Positions 26,187 to 49,867 of a stretch of 64,000 bases of DNA are shown here, in pieces. This DNA is from a virus (taxonomy: Duplodnaviria > Caudoviricetes). Each line of letters starts with the position of its first letter. The stretch's first letter is position 1. Below the pieces are notes generated by a model. It did no database searches and was not told the DNA's origin. It was given only the letters and a program-made list of their open reading frames with translations. The translations under genes were made by a program, and so were the position numbers. The stretch is from the IMG/VR virus record IMGVR_UViG_3300009702_001278, positions 1,779-65,778 of that record; one strand, 5' to 3'.

Positions 26187-29100
26187 TTACCTAGCGAACA
26201 AATCACCCTTTTGACGCCCAAGTCCTCTCTTCCGGTCGTTTTTAATGGTGTCAAAGTCTCGGAGTAATTGAGATTTTGGCTTATCCTTACCAAATAGATT
26301 CGCATCACATAAGGCTTCAACCACTTTGCTGTTGACAGCAGAGCCAACTTTGTTTGCGAATGCAAACATCAAGTCGTTGCCTTTATATGGTTGGTTTTCG
26401 ATAATCTCGTGAGCAGCCTTATCACCAACGTCCCTAATAATGAGTGGGCGCAGCAATTCTCGCTCTCCGATCTTAACGTAATGCATCTTAGATAGATTCA
26501 AACTGGGAGGGGCAATCTTATAGTTATGCTTCCGTAAGTCATCCTCATACTTACTAACCAAATCAAAGTCTCTGCGCTGTGCCTCAACCGACAACCTCGA
26601 AGCCATAAACTCAAGCATATAGTGAGCCTTGAGGTAAGCCGTCTTCCAGCACTCGTAAGCATAACTGGTGGCATGAGAATTTCGATTGACAATACCAGAA
26701 GATAGGCAATATAAGTGGGCTTCACTATCAACTTCAAGGTCATAACATTGATTCAGTCCAGCATACTTGATACTTGTGACCCGTACTTTTTGCCAATTAG
26801 CTTGACTACTCCTCTTTCCGGGCATAACATCACCATGTTTAACAGTCGTTGAAACTCCTGGTGTTTGAATCTTTTGTGATGAGATAACCACACATCGTAA
26901 GACATTCGAACAACTAGATACCCCCATTGACAAAGCTGATCGTTTACCTCTATGTCTTTTTGTTGATTTTGTAACAACTTCGTGTTGTTTATGTGATTTA
27001 TAAAATGGTATTGCCCATCGTATTCCACAACTACCTTGCGATCCCTGTCTATAAAATCCACTTGTCTTCTTTGTGAAATGGAAGTAAATTTCTTGCTTTT
27101 GATGATTTGTGAATGCTTGAAACCAAGAGGGCATAAAACATCCTTTAGATACAACTCGGGGGCTGAGTGCCATTGATTTTGCCTCATTGCGGGCAAAACG
27201 CATTTGATTATAAAATCCTCTGGATTTTCTACCCGCCATTTCCTGAGTTGTTCTGTCCTCGCCTTCAATATTTCTGGTCGAGCAGATGTTTCGATAGCGG
27301 TTTCCACCCTGTTTTTCTGGAACAGAGATTTGTGAGTCACGTTGAGTTTCTTCATCAAACAGGAACGCCGATGAATTTCTTCTTCGTTGGATAAGATCGC
27401 CGCAGATACCGAGGATGACACTGTTTTCTTGTATTCCGCGAGCCTTTCTGGGTCTTTTTTGATTTCCTCCCAGAATTTTCTTGATATTTTTCCGTTCGAT
27501 TCCGAATAATGATGAGACTTTATTACCTCCCATTGTTGACACTGCTTCTTGTGAGAATAAAGCTCTCGCTTCGTGAATTTTTGCTCGCAACCTGGACAAA
27601 CAAAAGTCTTTTTGCTCAGTTTGTATTCTTCGCATTTTCTCTTGTGTTCTATAAACACTCTTCGGTTCGGCAACACCTCCTGACATCCCAGGCAAATCCA
27701 ATCTTTCCTTTTTGGCATTTTTTATCTCCCAATTTTGCATAACAAACAAATTGCGTTCTACAATTTCACGAAGAGATCGTATGCCTTGATTAGTCATAAA
27801 CTTATGATCTAAAGTACATACATGTTTACTACCGTCACTAAATTCGACTTCCCACGTTGGTATCACACCATGATCATATACATCTACAATCTCAATTGGA
27901 TCACCTTCAGGTGAATAAACATCAGGCAAAGATTCTCCGCTTCTCTTTCTATTATACAATTCTTGGATAGAAATGTCATTTTCCGAGGTTATGATTTTTT
28001 CCGAAAAGGACAGTGACTTGTTGAAAGCATAACCACCAAACTTCTCCATATCATCCCAAATCTTCTTGGCAACCCCGGAGGGAACGCCCGTCTCGATGGC
28101 GGCTCGTAGGAACTGATCCTTGAAGTTGTTGATGATCTTGATTTTCTTCTTAGCACAACCTTTCATAAACATGTAACCATCAGAAGCGGTCAAGTCTGCC
28201 AGTGCCATGAATGCCTGCATGACCTGTTCTTGATAGGCCATAATACCATAGGTTCTCTGGGTGATCTTCCGCAGCAACGGGTGGGGGAATTCAACCTTAT
28301 GTTTTCCTGTCTTCCTATCGGACAACTCAGGGATATAATCCTTGGGGCCTGGCCTGTACATCGCAATAGCAACAATCAAGTCATCAAATGAATCAATGCC
28401 GATTTGCTGGAAGGTCTGCTTCATTCCTGTTTTTTCAGCTTGGAAACACCCGTCAGTATCACCCTTAGCTAACAAGGTGAGCGTTGAATTATCTTTCAAA
28501 GGTAACCGAGACAGGTCAACATCAACACCGTGGTTTTCCTTCACAAGTTTGACTGCCATCGCCAACGCAGTCTTCGTAGACAGACCTAGCACATCAAACT
28601 TAATAAGACCAAGCGACTCGACATCTTCCTTCGAGAATTGCGTTGCTACTGTCTTCTTGGACCAGTCATCATCTGTTGCACCATGTGTAATATGGAGTGG
28701 GCAAATTTGCTCAAGCGGAATTGGAGAAATAATCACTCCTGCTGCATGGCAATTATGGACAAGAATATCCTGAGCGATGAAGTTGGGCTCGTTTTGATAG
28801 AAGTCATCACGATCTTTGAATGTAATGTCCCAAACTTCCTGTTCTTCTAGAGGTTCTATACTTTCAATGGTATGACATTTTATTACTGAGTAGACCTTAT
28901 ATTTTTGAGGATTTTTTCTGATTTCCTCAAATTCTACACAACCTTGATCTGTAAATATCAGGTGCTCATCCGTAACCTTGATCCAAGTCCCCTTAGATAA
29001 CCGCATTTTGTAGCACTTTTTAATACCCGTGCAATGAGGATGGAAATCTGACGTATACAGTTCTTTTCCTACTTTATCTATGTATGCAACTTTGCAAGTA

Positions 29101-29858
29101 TTATCAAGCTGATCTATCCGCACCCAGCCTATATCTGTTTTGATAAGAGTATCTTTAGCCAGACACCCATATGCAGAGATAGAGCCTTCTAGCCGTCTTG
29201 CGACCCGATATACTTCCGGGTACTGCTTCATATACCGGGCAAAATCTGAGAAGGTTTCACAAGCATCGTCAACGCAGTTAATTAGAGAGCCATCCTTCTT
29301 CTTAAATGCTGACTGCGACTTAGGTAATGTGTTGAGAATCTCATTCTGTAGTGCATAGTTTCTGCTTTTGTCTGGCTTGGAGCCGGAGTAGTCTATGGAG
29401 TTCTCTGGGTCAAGAATTTCTACAGCCTTGCGAACTGCTGCTTTTGTCTTCAGAGTTAGCGTTGTACCAACGTTGCCAACTCTGTCTTCACCGTACTTCT
29501 GCTGCAAGTACTCAATAATTTCATGGCGTCGAGCATAGTCGAAGTCCATGTCGATATCAGGGAAACCTGCCCGACCATAGGTACGTCGCTTCTCAACCGC
29601 AAACTCACCATTGGGTCGGGCTGTAGTAATCCCTAAAAAGTATGCTACTAGAGAGTTGAGGATATTTTTTCTGCCCGCTTGGATATCACCCTCAGTCAAC
29701 CTCTTGTATATCTCCAACAGATTGTCTACAATGCCCAGGCGTTCCATCTGCTGGAGTTCATCAAACAACCTTTCTTTGTGTTTGTCAAAATCAGGCTTGT
29801 CAGTGATAAACGATATTACCTTTCTTCCTTTTTCACTTAGTTTCATCATCAACCTCAT
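26187..29858 (-). CDS. dnaE: DNA polymerase III alpha, catalytic part, with two inteins
   Basis: FPDIDMDF, G|CHAAGVII, LIKFDVLGL, YRPGP, YQEQVM, YAFNK|SHATSY. Confidence 0.92.
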   Translation of the reverse strand: MRLMMKLSEKGRKVISFITDKPDFDKHKERLFDELQQMERLGIVDNLLEIYKRLTEGDIQAGRKNILNSLVAYFLGITTARPNGEFAVEKRRTYGRAGFPDIDMDFDYARRHEIIEYLQQKYGEDRVGNVGTTLTLKTKAAVRKAVEILDPENSIDYSGSKPDKSRNYALQNEILNTLPKSQSAFKKKDGSLINCVDDACETFSDFARYMKQYPEVYRVARRLEGSISAYGCLAKDTLIKTDIGWVRIDQLDNTCKVAYIDKVGKELYTSDFHPHCTGIKKCYKMRLSKGTWIKVTDEHLIFTDQGCVEFEEIRKNPQKYKVYSVIKCHTIESIEPLEEQEVWDITFKDRDDFYQNEPNFIAQDILVHNCHAAGVIISPIPLEQICPLHITHGATDDDWSKKTVATQFSKEDVESLGLIKFDVLGLSTKTALAMAVKLVKENHGVDVDLSRLPLKDNSTLTLLAKGDTDGCFQAEKTGMKQTFQQIGIDSFDDLIVAIAMYRPGPKDYIPELSDRKTGKHKVEFPHPLLRKITQRTYGIMAYQEQVMQAFMALADLTASDGYMFMKGCAKKKIKIINNFKDQFLRAAIETGVPSGVAKKIWDDMEKFGGYAFNKSLSFSEKIITSENDISIQELYNRKRSGESLPDVYSPEGDPIEIVDVYDHGVIPTWEVEFSDGSKHVCTLDHKFMTNQGIRSLREIVERNLFVMQNWEIKNAKKERLDLPGMSGGVAEPKSVYRTQEKMRRIQTEQKDFCLSRLRAKIHEARALFSQEAVSTMGGNKVSSLFGIERKNIKKILGGNQKRPRKARGIQENSVILGICGDLIQRRRNSSAFLFDEETQRDSQISVPEKQGGNRYRNICSTRNIEGEDRTTQEMAGRKSRGFYNQMRFARNEAKSMALSPRVVSKGCFMPSWFQAFTNHQKQEIYFHFTKKTSGFYRQGSQGSCGIRWAIPFYKSHKQHEVVTKSTKRHRGKRSALSMGVSSCSNVLRCVVISSQKIQTPGVSTTVKHGDVMPGKRSSQANWQKVRVTSIKYAGLNQCYDLEVDSEAHLYCLSSGIVNRNSHATSYAYECWKTAYLKAHYMLEFMASRLSVEAQRRDFDLVSKYEDDLRKHNYKIAPPSLNLSKMHYVKIGERELLRPLIIRDVGDKAAHEIIENQPYKGNDLMFAFANKVGSAVNSKVVEALCDANLFGKDKPKSQLLRDFDTIKNDRKRGLGRQKGDLFAR
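26679..28016 (-). mobile_element. DnaE intein 2 (446 aa) with nested out-of-frame endonuclease gene
   Basis: Starts SLSFSEKI after FNK, block B CTLDHKF, ends CYDLEV...GIVNRN before SHA. Confidence 0.85.
26753..27718 (-). CDS. zinc-finger plus DUF559/Vsr-like endonuclease nested in intein 2
   Basis: Own GGGAG RBS; CLGC..H..C and CPGC..H..C; VDFID...VVEYDGQYH...KD...GYLVVRM. Confidence 0.82.
   Translation of the reverse strand: MPKRKDWICLGCQEVLPNRRVFIEHKRKCEEYKLSKKTFVCPGCEQKFTKRELYSHKKQCQQWEVIKSHHYSESNGKISRKFWEEIKKDPERLAEYKKTVSSSVSAAILSNEEEIHRRSCLMKKLNVTHKSLFQKNRVETAIETSARPEILKARTEQLRKWRVENPEDFIIKCVLPAMRQNQWHSAPELYLKDVLCPLGFKHSQIIKSKKFTSISQRRQVDFIDRDRKVVVEYDGQYHFINHINNTKLLQNQQKDIEVNDQLCQWGYLVVRMSYDVWLSHHKRFKHQEFQRLLNMVMLCPERGVVKLIGKKYGSQVSSMLD
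28752..29165 (-). mobile_element. DnaE mini-intein 1 (138 aa)
   Basis: CLAKDTLI...VTDEHLIF...VWDI...ILVHN followed by Cys. Confidence 0.9.
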
Positions 29859-30903
29859 TCAAATATAACAACTCATTCAGTATTAGTTCAGCACATTCAT
29901 ATGTGGCTACCCGGTATGATATATTGTGGTCGTCTAAGAACGATCTGATCCGTGCCTGAATTTGTAAGGATTCATCCTTAGTCTGATACCTAATGTTATT
30001 CTCGGAATACTCCTGAATTTCAAGTAAGATAATATCATCATATGTCGGTATATCAAACAACACTTCTTTGTAAATCTTCGCCAACTTTAAGGCACTTTTT
30101 TCACAGAAAGGTGTATCATACAACATCTGAGCATATATGAAATTCAAAAAAGTGGGGCAATCTGAAACCACAAAGCCAGCGGTAGATGCATCCTGCTCTC
30201 TTTTGCGTTGTCCATACAGCATAAGCATCTAATCCGCAAATTCTGGATTGCGTCGATACTTCTGAATAAACGAAGTAGCATACTCTGTAACGTGGAAAGC
30301 ATTTCCGTTAAACCTGGTGTTCAAAGCATGTGACAACCATTTGGCAGTTTCAGTCTTTCCACTGCTCGGAGCACCGCAAAATGCTATCTTACGATTAAAG
30401 TAATCCCAAGTGCACATCGGAGACTCTATCAGATTCGTTCCGAAAAGCGTGCGATCAATATCACGAGGAATAGGTATTGAGATCGGTTCACATGCTTCGA
30501 TCTCTAGGAAAGCGACACGCATCGGACGATATACAAAATCCACAGTGATATTATAGGGACGGTCGTAGGGACGTTCAGACGGCACTGTGATACAGAACCT
30601 ATCTTTGCTAACCACTAAATTAGCATTCTGAATCAATATAGTAGCAGCTTCCTCGCTCAAGTCTGCCTCATCTTCAAATCGATGACCATCCCTCTTATCT
30701 CCAGTCTTGCAGGTCAATCGCCATTCATCATCTATGGGAACACCTGCTTCATCAGGTGAGCATTTATGTCGGATACGACACCCTTTGTCATAGTAGTAAT
30801 CTTCTAGATGAAAGTTGTCATCACCTAATTCAATTTTCAACCCCTTGAGAAATTGATGTATCCCCTCATGAGTAAACATAAACGAACGTTCGTGTTCGAT
30901 CAT
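29833..30903 (-). CDS. CYTH-like plus NadR-type (AAA_28) kinase fusion, with in-frame TAG at 30229-30231
   Basis: N-terminal EHERSF; GAPSSGKT, TEYAT, then D*MLMLYGQRKRE...VVSD continues in the same frame. Confidence 0.7.
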
Positions 30904-45919: not shown

Positions 45920-46786
45920 TTACGATCCTTCCATACATAGCTTTATCTCTACGTTGGATGGATCAAGCATAATCTGCAACGCTCCTGCACCAAGCATCTG
46001 TTTGACTCTATCAGAGTTAATACCCCCTACTCGGGGCTTACCATGACAGCCAGACAAAAACTCGGGGTTGCACGTTACAATAGTGGGAAGGCTGCTGCGC
46101 CTATAGAATAATTGGTCAAGATCGACCACTTTATTGTTGGATACATCGAAATTGTCGATAACGAGGAAATTTACTTCCGCCCATTCATCTAACTGTTCAA
46201 AGTCAATGTATTTACCAAAGCTATAAGCGGCGTCTACCAACACAGAGCCTTCTACCCATCCGAACGTATAGTCCTTACCACTGTCTATTGAGGCTCGAAC
46301 AACTTCTTTCAAAATCAACGCCGCAAGCAAAGATTTACCACTTCGATTACCACCCGCAATAACGACATTTCCGCCACACACTGACTTCTCATGAATCAGC
46401 GAATGCTTTTGTCGTTCTTCACGAGTTGATACCAAATTGATATCATCGGTATCAAAGCAGTAACACATCGCTTGCGAACGAGCCCGTTGAGCGACCATAG
46501 CAGCAGTATTCTCATTCATCCCTTCAATACAACCAATTACCTCGGTTCTGCCGTTTGGATATCGAGTCCGCAATGAGCCATTAAAATCGCTCCAGTTGTA
46601 GTACTTGAGTCCTGATGGTTTCAGCTTGATCTGCTCAAAACGCCACTTGACCGCAGCTAAATGTTGGCATCCACAAGCTGTCCAACCATTATCCCTAAGC
46701 ACACACTTAACACCCTTACAACGAGGGCATTGTGATGCGTAATGTTCCTTGTATTCTGAGTACGATATTAGAGATTGTCGATTCAT
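45920..46786 (-). CDS. DnaC/IstB-like helicase loader
   Basis: N-terminal CPRC...CGC, GGNRSGKS, LVIDN, LPTIVTCN; next to dnaB. Confidence 0.7.
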   Translation of the reverse strand: MNRQSLISYSEYKEHYASQCPRCKGVKCVLRDNGWTACGCQHLAAVKWRFEQIKLKPSGLKYYNWSDFNGSLRTRYPNGRTEVIGCIEGMNENTAAMVAQRARSQAMCYCFDTDDINLVSTREERQKHSLIHEKSVCGGNVVIAGGNRSGKSLLAALILKEVVRASIDSGKDYTFGWVEGSVLVDAAYSFGKYIDFEQLDEWAEVNFLVIDNFDVSNNKVVDLDQLFYRRSSLPTIVTCNPEFLSGCHGKPRVGGINSDRVKQMLGAGALQIMLDPSNVEIKLCMEGS

Positions 46787-47958
46787 TCAGTTAAGTCATC
46801 TTCAGTCAGATCGTTTAGGTCGCCCGCCAAATCAAAAGTTCGGTCGGGAGTCGAGACTGCATACGATTTGCCTGAACCAGAAGAGTTGGCCAGACGAGCA
46901 CGACCGCCCGATCCATCCTTACCCTTGGCCCATTCACGCATGACGGTGACTTCCTCTCGCCTGCTATTATACAACGGTTGGAATTTGCCTATCTCACTGA
47001 CAATATCATCGGTCGTTACCTTGCGCTTCTTATCTTGGAATGCCAAGAATAGCGCATTATTTATTCCCTTTTCCATTTCAGCAGGGCTGTAGTTATCAGC
47101 CGCATCTGCGATTCTCGACAGATTGAAGTCGGCTGGGTCTCGATCTTTCCGCTTTAACAAAACTTCTGCAACCTCAACCCGTTGATCCCGGTCGGGTAGA
47201 TCAAGGAAGAAGATTTCATCGAAGCGCCCTGCACGCTGAAACTCAGGTGGGATACCATCAAGATTGTTAGCAGTTGCAATAACGAAGACAGGCTCTTCCT
47301 TTTCCTGCATCCACGTCAACAGCGTACCAAAGACTCGGTTGGTAACTCCACCATCAGTGACATTACTACTTGCTACCCCACCAATACCCTTTTCGATTTC
47401 ATCCACCCAAAGGACACAGGGTGCAATAGCTTCCGCAGTCTGGATGGCAAGTCGAGTATTCTCCTCAGACTCACCAATATGAGCCGAGAATAAGGCCCCA
47501 ATGTCCAGCCGCAGAAGTGGCATCTCAAAATGGACACCAACTGCATCCGAGATCATCGATTTTCCTGTGTTGTGGGACACGATATCATTGGAATAATATC
47601 TATGACTTAAACTCTTCACCTCTAAATCAAAGGTGTCTTTTACTCCTATAGATTCTTTAGCGACAACTGCTTGCCACCCGGACATTGTGCGTACTAAATC
47701 CTCCTGCACATTGATGTCTTCCGACTTCTTCCATGAATGACACTCAACACTATCACTCGTCCATATGTAATGATCAGCAGAACATCCGAGTTCTTGACCA
47801 TTTTCCAGCACCAAATTATAACAATCTTTATTCCGCTTCTGTACCAGTGATCCTATGTCTTGCCATCCATCGGGAGTATGAATTTGATAAGTACCTCCAT
47901 CCTTACACAAAGCAAAAAACTCTTCTATCGTAATTTCCTGTTCTTCATCTTTTTGCAT
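46783..47958 (-). CDS. C-intein (130 aa) fused to the C-terminal half of a Ycf46-like AAA ATPase
   Basis: CSADHYIW, TFDLEV...IVSHN then TGKS, LWVDEIEK, ATAN, RAGRFDE. Confidence 0.88.
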   Translation of the reverse strand: MQKDEEQEITIEEFFALCKDGGTYQIHTPDGWQDIGSLVQKRNKDCYNLVLENGQELGCSADHYIWTSDSVECHSWKKSEDINVQEDLVRTMSGWQAVVAKESIGVKDTFDLEVKSLSHRYYSNDIVSHNTGKSMISDAVGVHFEMPLLRLDIGALFSAHIGESEENTRLAIQTAEAIAPCVLWVDEIEKGIGGVASSNVTDGGVTNRVFGTLLTWMQEKEEPVFVIATANNLDGIPPEFQRAGRFDEIFFLDLPDRDQRVEVAEVLLKRKDRDPADFNLSRIADAADNYSPAEMEKGINNALFLAFQDKKRKVTTDDIVSEIGKFQPLYNSRREEVTVMREWAKGKDGSGGRARLANSSGSGKSYAVSTPDRTFDLAGDLNDLTEDDLTE

Positions 47959-48833
47959 AGAATTTCAATCCTCTTTCGATACTTTCGGTTAAACTCGACT
48001 GCACCTTTTTCAAACAAAGACACAATCCGATCCGTTTCTAATAATTTCACGTCAACCATCTCAAACTCAAGACCGTTGTTTTTACAAAATTCAATCGCGG
48101 CCTTTCTCTTAAGTATATTCGATGGAGTTTCCATTAACTGCTTTGGTTTAACTTCTACCAGCACTTTGTTGTCTACTAGAAAATCCGGTCTATATGTTCT
48201 TGAAGTGCCATCGTAATTGGTATACGGTATAAAGAACTCCTTAGTTTCAGCACTTCGCCATTCATGATCATTTCCCTCAAGAACCCTAATCATATATGAC
48301 AGCTCTCGAAGACTTCGGAAATACCATCCTTTATACCATCCTCCCCAGCCGCCACCAGACCCCTTTGGAGCAGGCTTCCCGTACATAGGGTTGTTCTCAC
48401 CAGAAGAATTCTCCGATTGAACCTTAAGCCACTTCGCAAACTTTTTTGCAGCTACTTCCCCTCCAAGTTGATCTTTCCAAATGTCATAGAAGCTCCTGCC
48501 AAACATCCCATTCTGAGTACCCATCCTTGCAGAGGTTTTTTTGAATTCTTCCGTCTGAGTGTAGCTGCGATCAACCTCTTCACTCAAATACTTCTTAGTT
48601 TCTTCCGAATGTTTTTTCCCATAAAACGAGTTCTTTTCTCCAACCCGTTTTTTGGCTCTCTCCGATCTTTCCTTCTTTATTTCTAATCGCGATCCTACTT
48701 CCTTCGATCTGCAAGAACGACATAGTTTCTTGTCTTTATCTGCGCGATTCCTATTCTTAATATTCGCATAAGTTAACTCTATCTTACATTCAGGGCAATT
48801 CCTTAAAAAAGGAGGTAAAGATTTCTTTCGCAT
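47925..48833 (-). CDS. free-standing endonuclease (NUMOD3 repeats plus TnsA-N-like PD-(D/E)XK domain)
   Basis: NSFYGKKHSEETK, GENNPMYGK, FRSLREL, YRPDFLV...VEVKP. Confidence 0.82.
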   Translation of the reverse strand: MRKKSLPPFLRNCPECKIELTYANIKNRNRADKDKKLCRSCRSKEVGSRLEIKKERSERAKKRVGEKNSFYGKKHSEETKKYLSEEVDRSYTQTEEFKKTSARMGTQNGMFGRSFYDIWKDQLGGEVAAKKFAKWLKVQSENSSGENNPMYGKPAPKGSGGGWGGWYKGWYFRSLRELSYMIRVLEGNDHEWRSAETKEFFIPYTNYDGTSRTYRPDFLVDNKVLVEVKPKQLMETPSNILKRKAAIEFCKNNGLEFEMVDVKLLETDRIVSLFEKGAVEFNRKYRKRIEILCKKMKNRKLR

Positions 48834-48868
48834 AATAGTTTCTCCTCGTCGGATAGCCCGACACAGGA

Positions 48869-49867
48869 CTATTCTACGAAAATTTGATGTTCTCCTTCAT
48901 CAGAAATCTTTTTTACTCTGATTTTTGTATCACCCAAAACACAACCTGGAATGCCCACAAGCAGCACTCCCTTTGGGTTGTCCAGTCCGAAGTCTCTGGC
49001 ATCGGATTTGAAACCAAGCCTACGCATACCTAGCCATTCTTTCAGATTGTCAAGTCCACCGATCTGGTCAAACGAGAACCTACTATCCCTGTACTCCAAG
49101 ATACCTCCCTTACGGATAATCTGTTTCTTTTCGTCTAGGATAGTTGATATATCGAACGTTTTCGTCTTGACCAACGATTTAGCATAGGCATTCTCTGCCT
49201 CGGTAATCGTCAATCCCGTCGTTGAATGTAGAATCTCTTCCCGGTTGTCTCTTGCAGACTTCAAGGCATTAGGAAAACGAGCTGGGATATGTTTGCACAT
49301 CTTCGTGAAAGAAACTTCGACCTCTTCTCGGGACGGGGGCGGAAAGTCAATCAGGGTGAATTCCTTCTCTAATGCCACTGGGCAGACAAAGACAGGTGAA
49401 ACAATCACAATATAACAGACCGACGTGAAGCTAGCAAACTCTTTGAAGAGCCGCTCGATCACAGGAGCACCTTCCAAAAAGTGGTGGAAGTCGAGCAACA
49501 TAAAAATCGAGCCTGCTGATGCCGATTCTTTCTCATTGGCAGACTTGGCTTGATCTATAATATAATGCAGTGCCGCCTCCGCATCGTTGTGAACTTCACT
49601 TTCTTTAGCTTGAATTTGCTGCAACGAGGAAGCATCTAACATCCCCCTGCTGAAATCCCAATGAAACAGATTAAAGCCTTCCGAATAGGCAATCAGTTTG
49701 AAGGCACTGATAACCCGACGCTCTTCTGGGCTGCGGATATAGAGTATCCGGTATCTACTCTTGATATGATAGAATAGTTCACGACCAATTTGGCCGTCAC
49801 CTAGAGCAAGTAGCTGCTGGCGATATTCCCGCCGCACCTTTGGCGTGAGGGTTATTTCCTGGCTCAT
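48869..49867 (-). CDS. N-terminal half of a Ycf46-like AAA ATPase ending in a 24-aa N-intein
   Basis: EERR, DFHHFL, EKKQII, IGGLDNLKEWL, PKGVLLVGIPG then CVLGDTKIRV. Confidence 0.88.
   Translation of the reverse strand: MSQEITLTPKVRREYRQQLLALGDGQIGRELFYHIKSRYRILYIRSPEERRVISAFKLIAYSEGFNLFHWDFSRGMLDASSLQQIQAKESEVHNDAEAALHYIIDQAKSANEKESASAGSIFMLLDFHHFLEGAPVIERLFKEFASFTSVCYIVIVSPVFVCPVALEKEFTLIDFPPPSREEVEVSFTKMCKHIPARFPNALKSARDNREEILHSTTGLTITEAENAYAKSLVKTKTFDISTILDEKKQIIRKGGILEYRDSRFSFDQIGGLDNLKEWLGMRRLGFKSDARDFGLDNPKGVLLVGIPGCVLGDTKIRVKKISDEGEHQIFVE

Follow-up and report, generated by a model that had tools for sequence, protein, structure and literature searches.

An unbroken phage DnaE intein overlapped by an out-of-frame Vsr-like nuclease gene, with stop codons avoided in the dnaE frame

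The dnaE gene, its second intein and the nested gene

We analyzed a 64,000-nucleotide (nt) stretch of viral DNA (Duplodnaviria; Caudoviricetes; IMG/VR record IMGVR_UViG_3300009702_001278, positions 1,779 to 65,778), here called the window, in which an intein of the polymerase gene dnaE contains a second gene in another reading frame. The window appears to come from an uncultured giant phage, and 54 of its 59 open reading frames (ORFs) of at least 150 amino acids (aa) are on the minus strand, as are dnaE and all the features within it that are described below. The dnaE catalytic-subunit gene was called as an ORF at 26187-29858, and its 1223-aa precursor carries two inteins and matches the Pfam families DNA_pol3_finger (6.6e-42) and DNA_pol3_alpha (1.8e-30). 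Removing both inteins gives a mature extein of 639 aa, compared with 630-640 aa for intein-less homologues.

The second intein, of 446 aa (26679-28016; precursor residues 615-1060), is inserted at GYAFNK|SH. It begins with Ser1 (S615) and ends with Asn446 (N1060), followed by Ser at position +1 (S1061), reading ...VNRN|SH. These ends had been described as atypical in the original prediction, on account of Ser1 and a penultimate Arg, and both residues are present; in related clusters position 1 is Thr in 6 of 17. Pfam Intein_splicing matches precursor residues 630-1057 at 41.2 bits (cut-off 35.8). The N-terminal splicing part (IntN; intein residues 1-96, 27729-28016) has the block B motif TLDH, in which H71 is invariant, and the C-terminal part (IntC; residues 406-446, 26679-26801) has the pattern NW..V.I..I.Y.G..QCYDLEV.S..HLYCL.SG...N; both parts are conserved in six sequences, i.e., the window and the five related loci introduced below. 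The site GYAFNK-SH is uninterrupted in the intein-less homologues P0025, P0027, P0192 and P0197, and the sequence in P0192, MEKFGGYAFNKSHATSYAYECW, is the exact junction that splicing would create in the window. We infer that intein 2 is a contiguous Hint-fold class 1 intein, whose splicing activity is suggested by the stop avoidance reported below and by the essentiality of dnaE.

Between the two splicing parts lies a complete ORF of 321 codons (26753-27718), the nested gene, which starts 2140 nt into dnaE and is thus in the +1 frame relative to it. A Shine-Dalgarno-like (SD-like) GGGAG motif at 27726-27730, itself inside intein codons, precedes the ATG at 27718 by 7 nt. The claim that the intein contains an out-of-frame gene with its own GGGAG was thereby borne out in coordinates, frame and spacing. 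The 3' end of the nested gene overlaps the conserved start of IntC by about 49 nt. Conservation of the encoded protein begins exactly at the ATG (MPKRKDW.C.GC), purine-rich SD-like motifs precede this ATG in most relatives, and the ORF is retained in all five related DNA loci. Read in the dnaE frame, the gene becomes a 'shadow' linker (intein residues 97-405; 26802-27728) that has no stops and is unconserved.

The predicted structure of the nested protein (mean predicted local confidence, pLDDT, 89.2) consists of two C2H2-like fingers, a helical middle region and a C-terminal domain, and structural alignment of this model assigns the last of these (residues 183-316; 26771-27172) to the Vsr-like PD-(D/E)xK nucleases. 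The best Foldseek matches are to Vsr, with probabilities of 0.99-1.00, and VIA-align gives Z-scores of 11.7 to Vsr 1cw0 (root-mean-square deviation 2.7, 117 residues aligned), 11.0 to Vsr 1vsr, 9.7 to I-Bth0305I (3r3p) and 9.6 to 3hrl. Six acidic or histidine residues, E188, D221, E232, D234, H238 and D255, are invariant in 25 nuclease sequences, and the order E188, D221, D234, H238, D255 is compatible with the EDxHD composite motif, where the comparison is one of order alone. The two fingers (approximately residues 8-59; 27542-27697) were located by profile against PDB sequences: the nuclease family profile matches C2H2 zinc-finger chains with E 3.9e-5, and C41, C44 and H56 are conserved. The same search (E up to 1) returned zinc-finger matches only, with none to Vsr or 3r3p. 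On the basis of the structural model, the nested protein is a zinc-finger and Vsr-like nuclease, and cleavage is predicted. The original prediction had described it as a zinc-finger protein with DUF559-like motifs. The first part of this description stands; the second does not reach the threshold, since Pfam DUF559 scores 17.7 bits on the nested protein (P0002) against a cut-off of 20.6, while one relative, P0041, scores 20.7 bits. A PHROGs search gave just a weak match to an 'HNH endonuclease' family (E 0.0033). The nuclease recovered 184 cluster representatives (E up to 1e-3) in an exhaustive protein search, most of them about 300 aa long, and only one relative in a word-index search, which would fit nested genes escaping gene finders.

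Stop codons are excluded from the dnaE frame

Both frames are open across the nested gene. Over its 966 nt the dnaE frame has no stop at all, as had been claimed, whereas there are 23 stops in the third forward frame and 16, 18 and 16 in the reverse frames. A dnaE-frame stop can arise solely where a nuclease codon ending in T precedes AA, AG or GA, so that the question can be put for each third position of the nuclease gene: T occupies none of the 106 positions at risk in the window, compared with 64 of 215 elsewhere (Fisher 2.7e-13). Synonymous shuffling, which the original prediction had named as a check together with a frame-specific comparison of substitution rates, gave a mean of 18.0 dnaE-frame stops and a minimum of 6, and not one of 20,000 permutations was stop-free. 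Resampling by the codon usage of the window gave a mean of 27.9 and a minimum of 13, and the analytic estimate for a stop-free dnaE frame is log10 P = -15.9.

The avoidance is specific to this overlap. In the 52 other minus-strand ORFs of the window (16,201 codons), stops occur in the same off-frame at 9.3 per 100 codons, T stands at 1507 of 4774 risk positions, and the longest open run is 96 codons. Eight free-standing relatives of the nuclease (L096-L103) have 22-56 stops in the corresponding frame, and T at 20-43% of their risk positions.

Five related loci (L088-L092; 59-84% IntN identity) were found by scanning the DNA of metagenome contigs, a procedure without bias towards open frames. 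The dnaE frame is open in all five, so that the search for homologues with stops in this frame returned none, and each has a +1 ORF of 296-317 codons. Each also has no T in its 101-108 risk contexts, where 16-23 stops would be expected. For the six sequences pooled, T is found at 0 of 634 risk positions and at 402 of 1239 others, and it is missing irrespective of the type of stop that it would create (0/329 for TAA, 0/198 for TGA, 0/107 for TAG). Fourfold-degenerate codons alone give the same picture (0/169 at risk, 135/352 elsewhere), and in alignment columns that are always at risk the third position varies in 29 of 37, never to T. Selection is actively excluding stops from the dnaE frame in six of six independent sequences, despite saturated synonymous sites. 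That the open frame is instead a by-product of base composition, codon bias or an assembly error has a negligible probability: the synonymous shuffles, the controls from the same genome and from the free-standing family, and the six independent assemblies rule it out. We also considered a group I intron, but there was no Rfam match at E up to 1 between 25500 and 30500, and for an intron an open frame would be unnecessary.

The two overlapping readings are under different selection. Among the six sequences, amino-acid identity is 45-79% in the nuclease frame and 22-53% in the dnaE frame. The ratio of nonsynonymous to synonymous substitution rates (dN/dS) is 0.12 in the nuclease frame for the window and L088, most other pairs being saturated in dS, as against an apparent 1.2-2.1 in the dnaE frame. 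Purifying selection acts on the nuclease frame and the dnaE-frame reading is unconserved, which agrees with the earlier description of the latter as a shadow peptide devoid of motifs. Aligning the six inteins shows conservation from residue 1 to about residue 100 and again over 408-446, but not in the interior. In an AlphaFold2 model of the intein, residues 1-96 and 406-431 are ordered (pLDDT 52-88, with block means of 58-88 and 52-83 respectively), while residues 97-405 stay below a pLDDT of 50 throughout, with block means of 24-37. A linker of about 310 aa is thus predicted to be disordered.

We compared the composition of this linker (hydropathy, charge, and hydrophobic, K+R and polar fractions) with 1000 stop-free synonymous resamples per sequence, and claim no effect: z-scores are between -2.49 and +1.62, the K+R fraction being slightly low in 6/6 sequences. 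Because stop-free resampling predicts the composition of the linker, openness is the sole detectable constraint on the dnaE reading, except at the 3' end, where the nuclease gene overlaps the conserved start of IntC.

These observations suggest a mechanism in which the slot of intein 2 that usually holds an in-frame endonuclease domain has come to hold a homing-endonuclease gene of the free-standing type, on the same strand but in the +1 frame. Ribosomes in the dnaE frame would read through it, so that a probably disordered linker, some 310 aa long, would separate the Hint halves, which would then fold together and splice to give the 639-aa DnaE. The nuclease would be initiated apart, from its own SD-like sequence and ATG, and would presumably cut intein-less dnaE alleles at GYAFNK|SH. 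Cleavage of the empty allele would lead to intein and nuclease being copied in as one cassette. T would be banned from nuclease third positions before AA, AG or GA because a dnaE-frame stop would truncate an essential polymerase. Since stops are excluded, the nuclease has its own conserved ATG with an SD-like sequence, and IntC has no conserved start, we regard contiguous translation, cis-splicing and a separately initiated nuclease, with selection purging stops, as the best reading of the sequences, and hold it with considerable confidence; splicing, separate initiation and cleavage are its inferred elements. It is also in essence what had been proposed at the outset, namely that selection removed stops so that DnaE can still splice in cis while the nuclease is made separately, and the stop exclusion in 6/6 sequences, the conserved ATG and the SD-like sequence lend this proposal support.

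Two other ways of expressing the overlap must be weighed against this one. In the first, programmed frameshifting would join the nuclease to the intein, by a +1 shift where the nuclease starts and a return shift where it ends; the product would be a canonical intein that contains an endonuclease domain. An A-rich run at the junction, GATAAAAAATGCCAAAAAGG, could be taken as a shift site, but the junction sequence varies among relatives, and nuclease conservation starts exactly at an ATG with SD-like motifs upstream. Moreover, purging stops from the dnaE frame would serve no purpose if it were abandoned by ribosomes at this point, and yet the 634 risk positions contain no T. We therefore find frameshifting most improbable. 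In the second, IntC and the C-terminal part of DnaE would be initiated internally and spliced in trans, and the long read-through product would be irrelevant. Relatives with a fractured dnaE do just this, and the window has a Met 12 residues before the IntC core. However, this Met is not conserved in the other five sequences, which have no conserved internal start, and without a stop the N-terminal piece could not terminate. Stop avoidance over 300 codons makes sense only if read-through matters, and trans-splicing is accordingly given very little credence here.

Some points weigh against contiguous translation with cis-splicing, or narrow the base on which it stands. The penultimate residue of intein 2 is Arg rather than the usual His, and relatives have Ser or Ala there; a penultimate His is common in class 1 inteins, but not universal. 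The last 15 residues of the intein are modelled at low confidence, from an alignment of six rows. DNA is at hand for five relatives, the other 12 clusters being known as called proteins only, and the near-length protein search by its nature could not return truncated forms. Finally, a search of sequencing runs found the sequence in a single DNA run, probably its source, and listed no RNA run.

Movement of the cassette and fractured dnaE genes

To place the intein among its relatives, a protein search was made with the DnaE extein and IntN part as query, giving 37 hits, of which 36 non-self cluster representatives were inspected. A contiguous insert of 410-455 aa is present at the intein 2 site in 17 of the 36, and 14 have no intein there; one has an insert of 292 aa (P0023), one a mini-intein of 184 aa (P0014), and to the remaining three the pattern assigned no state. 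Compared with P0013, P0023 has lost an internal segment, and with it the nuclease domain, but keeps the dnaE frame open, and P0023 and P0014 represent the decay path usual for homing elements. P0024 (a 1564-aa DnaE, protein only) deserves separate mention: its shadow linker at this site is 455 aa long and very Lys/Asn-rich, its record lists Pfam LAGLIDADG_3, and elsewhere it has a second insert that resembles an intein. If its genome is AT-rich, as the Lys/Asn-rich linker by itself would imply, so long a frame would be even less likely to be open by chance.

The extein and the intein tell different histories. By extein, the closest of the six sequences to the window is L089 (extein 75%, splicing part 74%, nuclease 52% identity), whereas by intein and nuclease it is L088 (58%, 82% and 79% respectively). 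Along the nucleotide alignment of the window and L088, identity is 0.39-0.72 in the extein and rises to 0.71-0.89 over most of the intein, then is 0.67 in the bin that covers the 3' border of the intein and 0.49-0.69 beyond. The history of the cassette is discordant with that of the extein, which, on the basis of six sequences, is consistent with intein and nuclease having moved horizontally as a single unit. There may have been exchange within the cassette as well. The nested nucleases of L089 (6299-7186) and L092 (6284-7234) group together and share a divergent C-terminal half (for example, G.HHF and GWG), while the L089 intein's N-terminal part is about 80-85% identical to its counterpart in the window at the nucleotide level; this grouping, set against the closeness of the L089 extein and intein N-part to the window, suggests recombination inside the cassette.

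Other searches extended the set of relatives little. A blastn comparison of the gene with phage records gave no match, IMG/VR scans gave no close relative, whether the query was the nuclease, DnaE, IntN, the IntN alignment or P0044, and a scan of genome contigs with the IntN alignment found nothing. One further search returned 80 distant DnaE loci.

A viral-contig scan with the nuclease alignment returned the eight loci L096-L103 (29-38% identity) used as controls above. In all eight the nuclease gene lies between two dnaE ORFs. The upstream ORF ends GY[GA]FN. followed by an IntN of about 110 aa and a stop, and the downstream ORF opens with an IntC, about 35-50 aa long, that ends ...TSN|SH. 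In all four loci tested (8 ORFs), the DnaE halves were confirmed by Pfam. Alignments of the window's IntN and IntC with their L102 counterparts, spanning both junctions, show 34% identity over 131 aa (E 3e-19) and 42% over 74 aa (E 1e-20). By sequence similarity, then, a homologous split state exists, with a related nuclease at the same site of a fractured dnaE. In the window and in L088-L092 the dnaE frame is unbroken across intein 2, unlike in a fractured gene or a natural split intein.

This bears on the suggestion that the nested arrangement is a short-lived intermediate that precedes a split intein or fractured gene. The homologous split state exists, but the status of intermediate is unproven. 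In its favor are the fractured state of dnaE at the same site, with the same nuclease family and a homologous intein, in 8/8 viral loci, and two further proteins. P0190, the only one of 26 matches that extends into IntN in a search for shorter DnaE forms (the other 25 match the extein part only), carries a different intein allele that starts with Cys, ends just after IntN, and may be a split form at the intein 2 site; this search found no shorter form carrying the allele of the window. In P0044, a more distant DnaE fragment known as protein only, IntN runs in frame into a zinc-finger and Vsr-like nuclease at GYGFN.|T. The protein ends at the C-terminus of the nuclease; either IntN and nuclease are fused here as part of a split arrangement, or a contig end has truncated the protein. 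Against the suggestion, the nested state is old and stable: dS is saturated, nuclease identity among the six sequences is as low as 45%, and the state is common to 17 protein clusters. Where decay is observed, its products are shortened inteins and mini-inteins whose frame is still open (292 aa in P0023, 184 aa in P0014). In a tree of 14 nucleases a single branch parts nested from fractured forms with a support of 100/100, but because the tree is unrooted the direction of change cannot be read from it. We consider a transient intermediate unlikely.

As a tentative alternative, the contiguous overlapping form and the fractured dnaE could be two interconvertible states of one intein-nuclease lineage at one site, with the contiguous nested form ancestral; we would sooner doubt this than assert it, but it deserves to be spelled out. 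If true, interconversion would need as little as a nonsense mutation and an internal start, and there would be a natural series from cis-splicing to split intein that takes in the IntN-fused P0044, the possibly split P0190, the decayed P0023, the mini-intein P0014 and empty alleles. The contiguous nested form would then be the ancestral unsplit state, which the 2009 fractured-gene model (PMC2677866) does not seem to include.

The other intein of the gene provides a parallel. Intein 1 (28752-29165; precursor residues 232-369; CLAKD...LVHN|C) is a contiguous mini-intein of 138 aa in the window, whereas it is split in L088, L089 and L091; P0009 is without it. In L089 (2872-7752), a 643-aa N-terminal gene ends in IntN and is followed by a 105-aa ORF and then by an 872-aa gene that opens with IntC. 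The same dnaE gene family can thus be split at one intein and have the overlapped contiguous state at the other.

A second locus in the window, at 46783-49867, had been put forward as the end state of the process. It reads as a fractured AAA ATPase, in which a NUMOD3/TnsA-like endonuclease ORF is flanked by a 332-aa ORF that has no Pfam hits and by an ORF that has a weak Intein_splicing match and then an AAA domain. Because both the gene and the type of endonuclease are different, it is not the end state of the dnaE element, and this part of the original prediction fails. Next to dnaE, two ORFs at 30229-30903 and 29833-30228 correspond to consecutive portions of Pfam AAA_28; they share a frame and are parted only by an in-frame TAG directly before an ATG (GAT TAG ATG). 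The pair (29833-30903) could be a split gene or a candidate for read-through. In intein 2, by comparison, the dnaE frame avoids TAG as it does the other stops (0/107).

Significance and comparison with known systems

The overlap provides a natural example of selection that keeps a reading frame open without conserving the encoded product, and shows how overlapping endonuclease genes can be invisible to standard gene callers. At one and the same dnaE site, it connects an unbroken intein with the Vsr-like nucleases of fractured genes, and thereby supplies matched natural cis- and trans-splicing versions of one intein that should be useful for studying the origin of split inteins, and as a source of intein parts able to accommodate an insert of 300 aa. 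Out-of-frame intein endonucleases are, as a kind, already in print in preprints of 2025-2026, and because the general arrangement has been published the gain is incremental. A literature search, with the supplementary tables of Dassa et al. (2009) and Gosselin et al. outside its scope, found no same-strand +1 Vsr-like zinc-finger nuclease in a contiguous intein, and no pairing of such an intein with a dnaE fractured at the same site. The comparisons below draw on part of the text of each source.

The closest published arrangements are of two kinds. Gosselin, Arsenault and Gogarten (bioRxiv 10.1101/2025.01.02.630785) describe contiguous actinobacteriophage inteins whose endonuclease genes are antisense (LAGLIDADG and Vsr-like types) or lie on the same strand in frame 3 (endonuclease VII-like), and propose that these inteins arose when a free-standing endonuclease gene invaded an intein. 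As in the window, the intein is contiguous, the endonuclease ORF lies out of frame between splicing blocks, and the in-frame reading has no recognizable structure. Unlike the cases described there, the Vsr-like nuclease of the window is on the same strand, in frame +1, carries zinc fingers, and resides in the DnaE of a putative giant phage. Phillips, DeSimone and Gogarten (bioRxiv 10.64898/2026.09.14.751524) describe a cyanobacterial dnaX intein with a LAGLIDADG ORF in the +2 frame of the same strand. The likeness here extends to an upstream SD sequence, a disordered in-frame interior, coexisting mini and empty alleles, and values of omega that are low for the endonuclease frame but exceed 1 for the host frame. 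However, the dnaX element differs in endonuclease type, in frame and in its bacterial host gene, and as described it has no fractured counterpart, whereas the Vsr-like element of the window has a homologous fractured dnaE. The dnaX case of Gorbalenya 1998 is cited discordantly in the two preprints, as an alternate frame in one account and as antisense in the other.

For the nuclease itself, a similar design has been described in I-Bth0305I of the EDxHD family (Taylor et al., 2011, PMC3239194), which likewise has a DNA-binding module followed by a Vsr-like C-terminal catalytic domain, and with whose motif the invariant E, D, H and D of the window nuclease are compatible in order. That enzyme is encoded in an intron and binds DNA through NUMOD and helix-turn-helix (HTH) motifs, whereas the N-terminus of the window nuclease has C2H2-like zinc fingers. 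A frame that stays stop-free across an out-of-frame endonuclease gene has also been described for the ShiLan insertion in a phage methylase, where the hidden endonuclease is of the HNH type (Arsenault et al., 2025, PMC11855218); lacking splicing domains, the ShiLan element remains part of its host protein, while in the window clear intein blocks flank the nuclease gene. The fractured phage DNA-replication genes of Dassa et al. (2009, PMC2677866), dnaE among them, also resemble the window: they have Vsr-like nucleases, and, as in the window, the 3' end of the nuclease gene overlaps the start of IntC. It is in fractured dnaE loci of just this type that relatives of the window's nuclease occur. 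In those loci the host frame ends after IntN and restarts at IntC, giving trans-splicing, and the model in Figure 5 of that paper provides for fracture or in-frame insertion, but apparently not for an out-of-frame unbroken state; in the window the host frame runs unbroken from one splicing part to the other.

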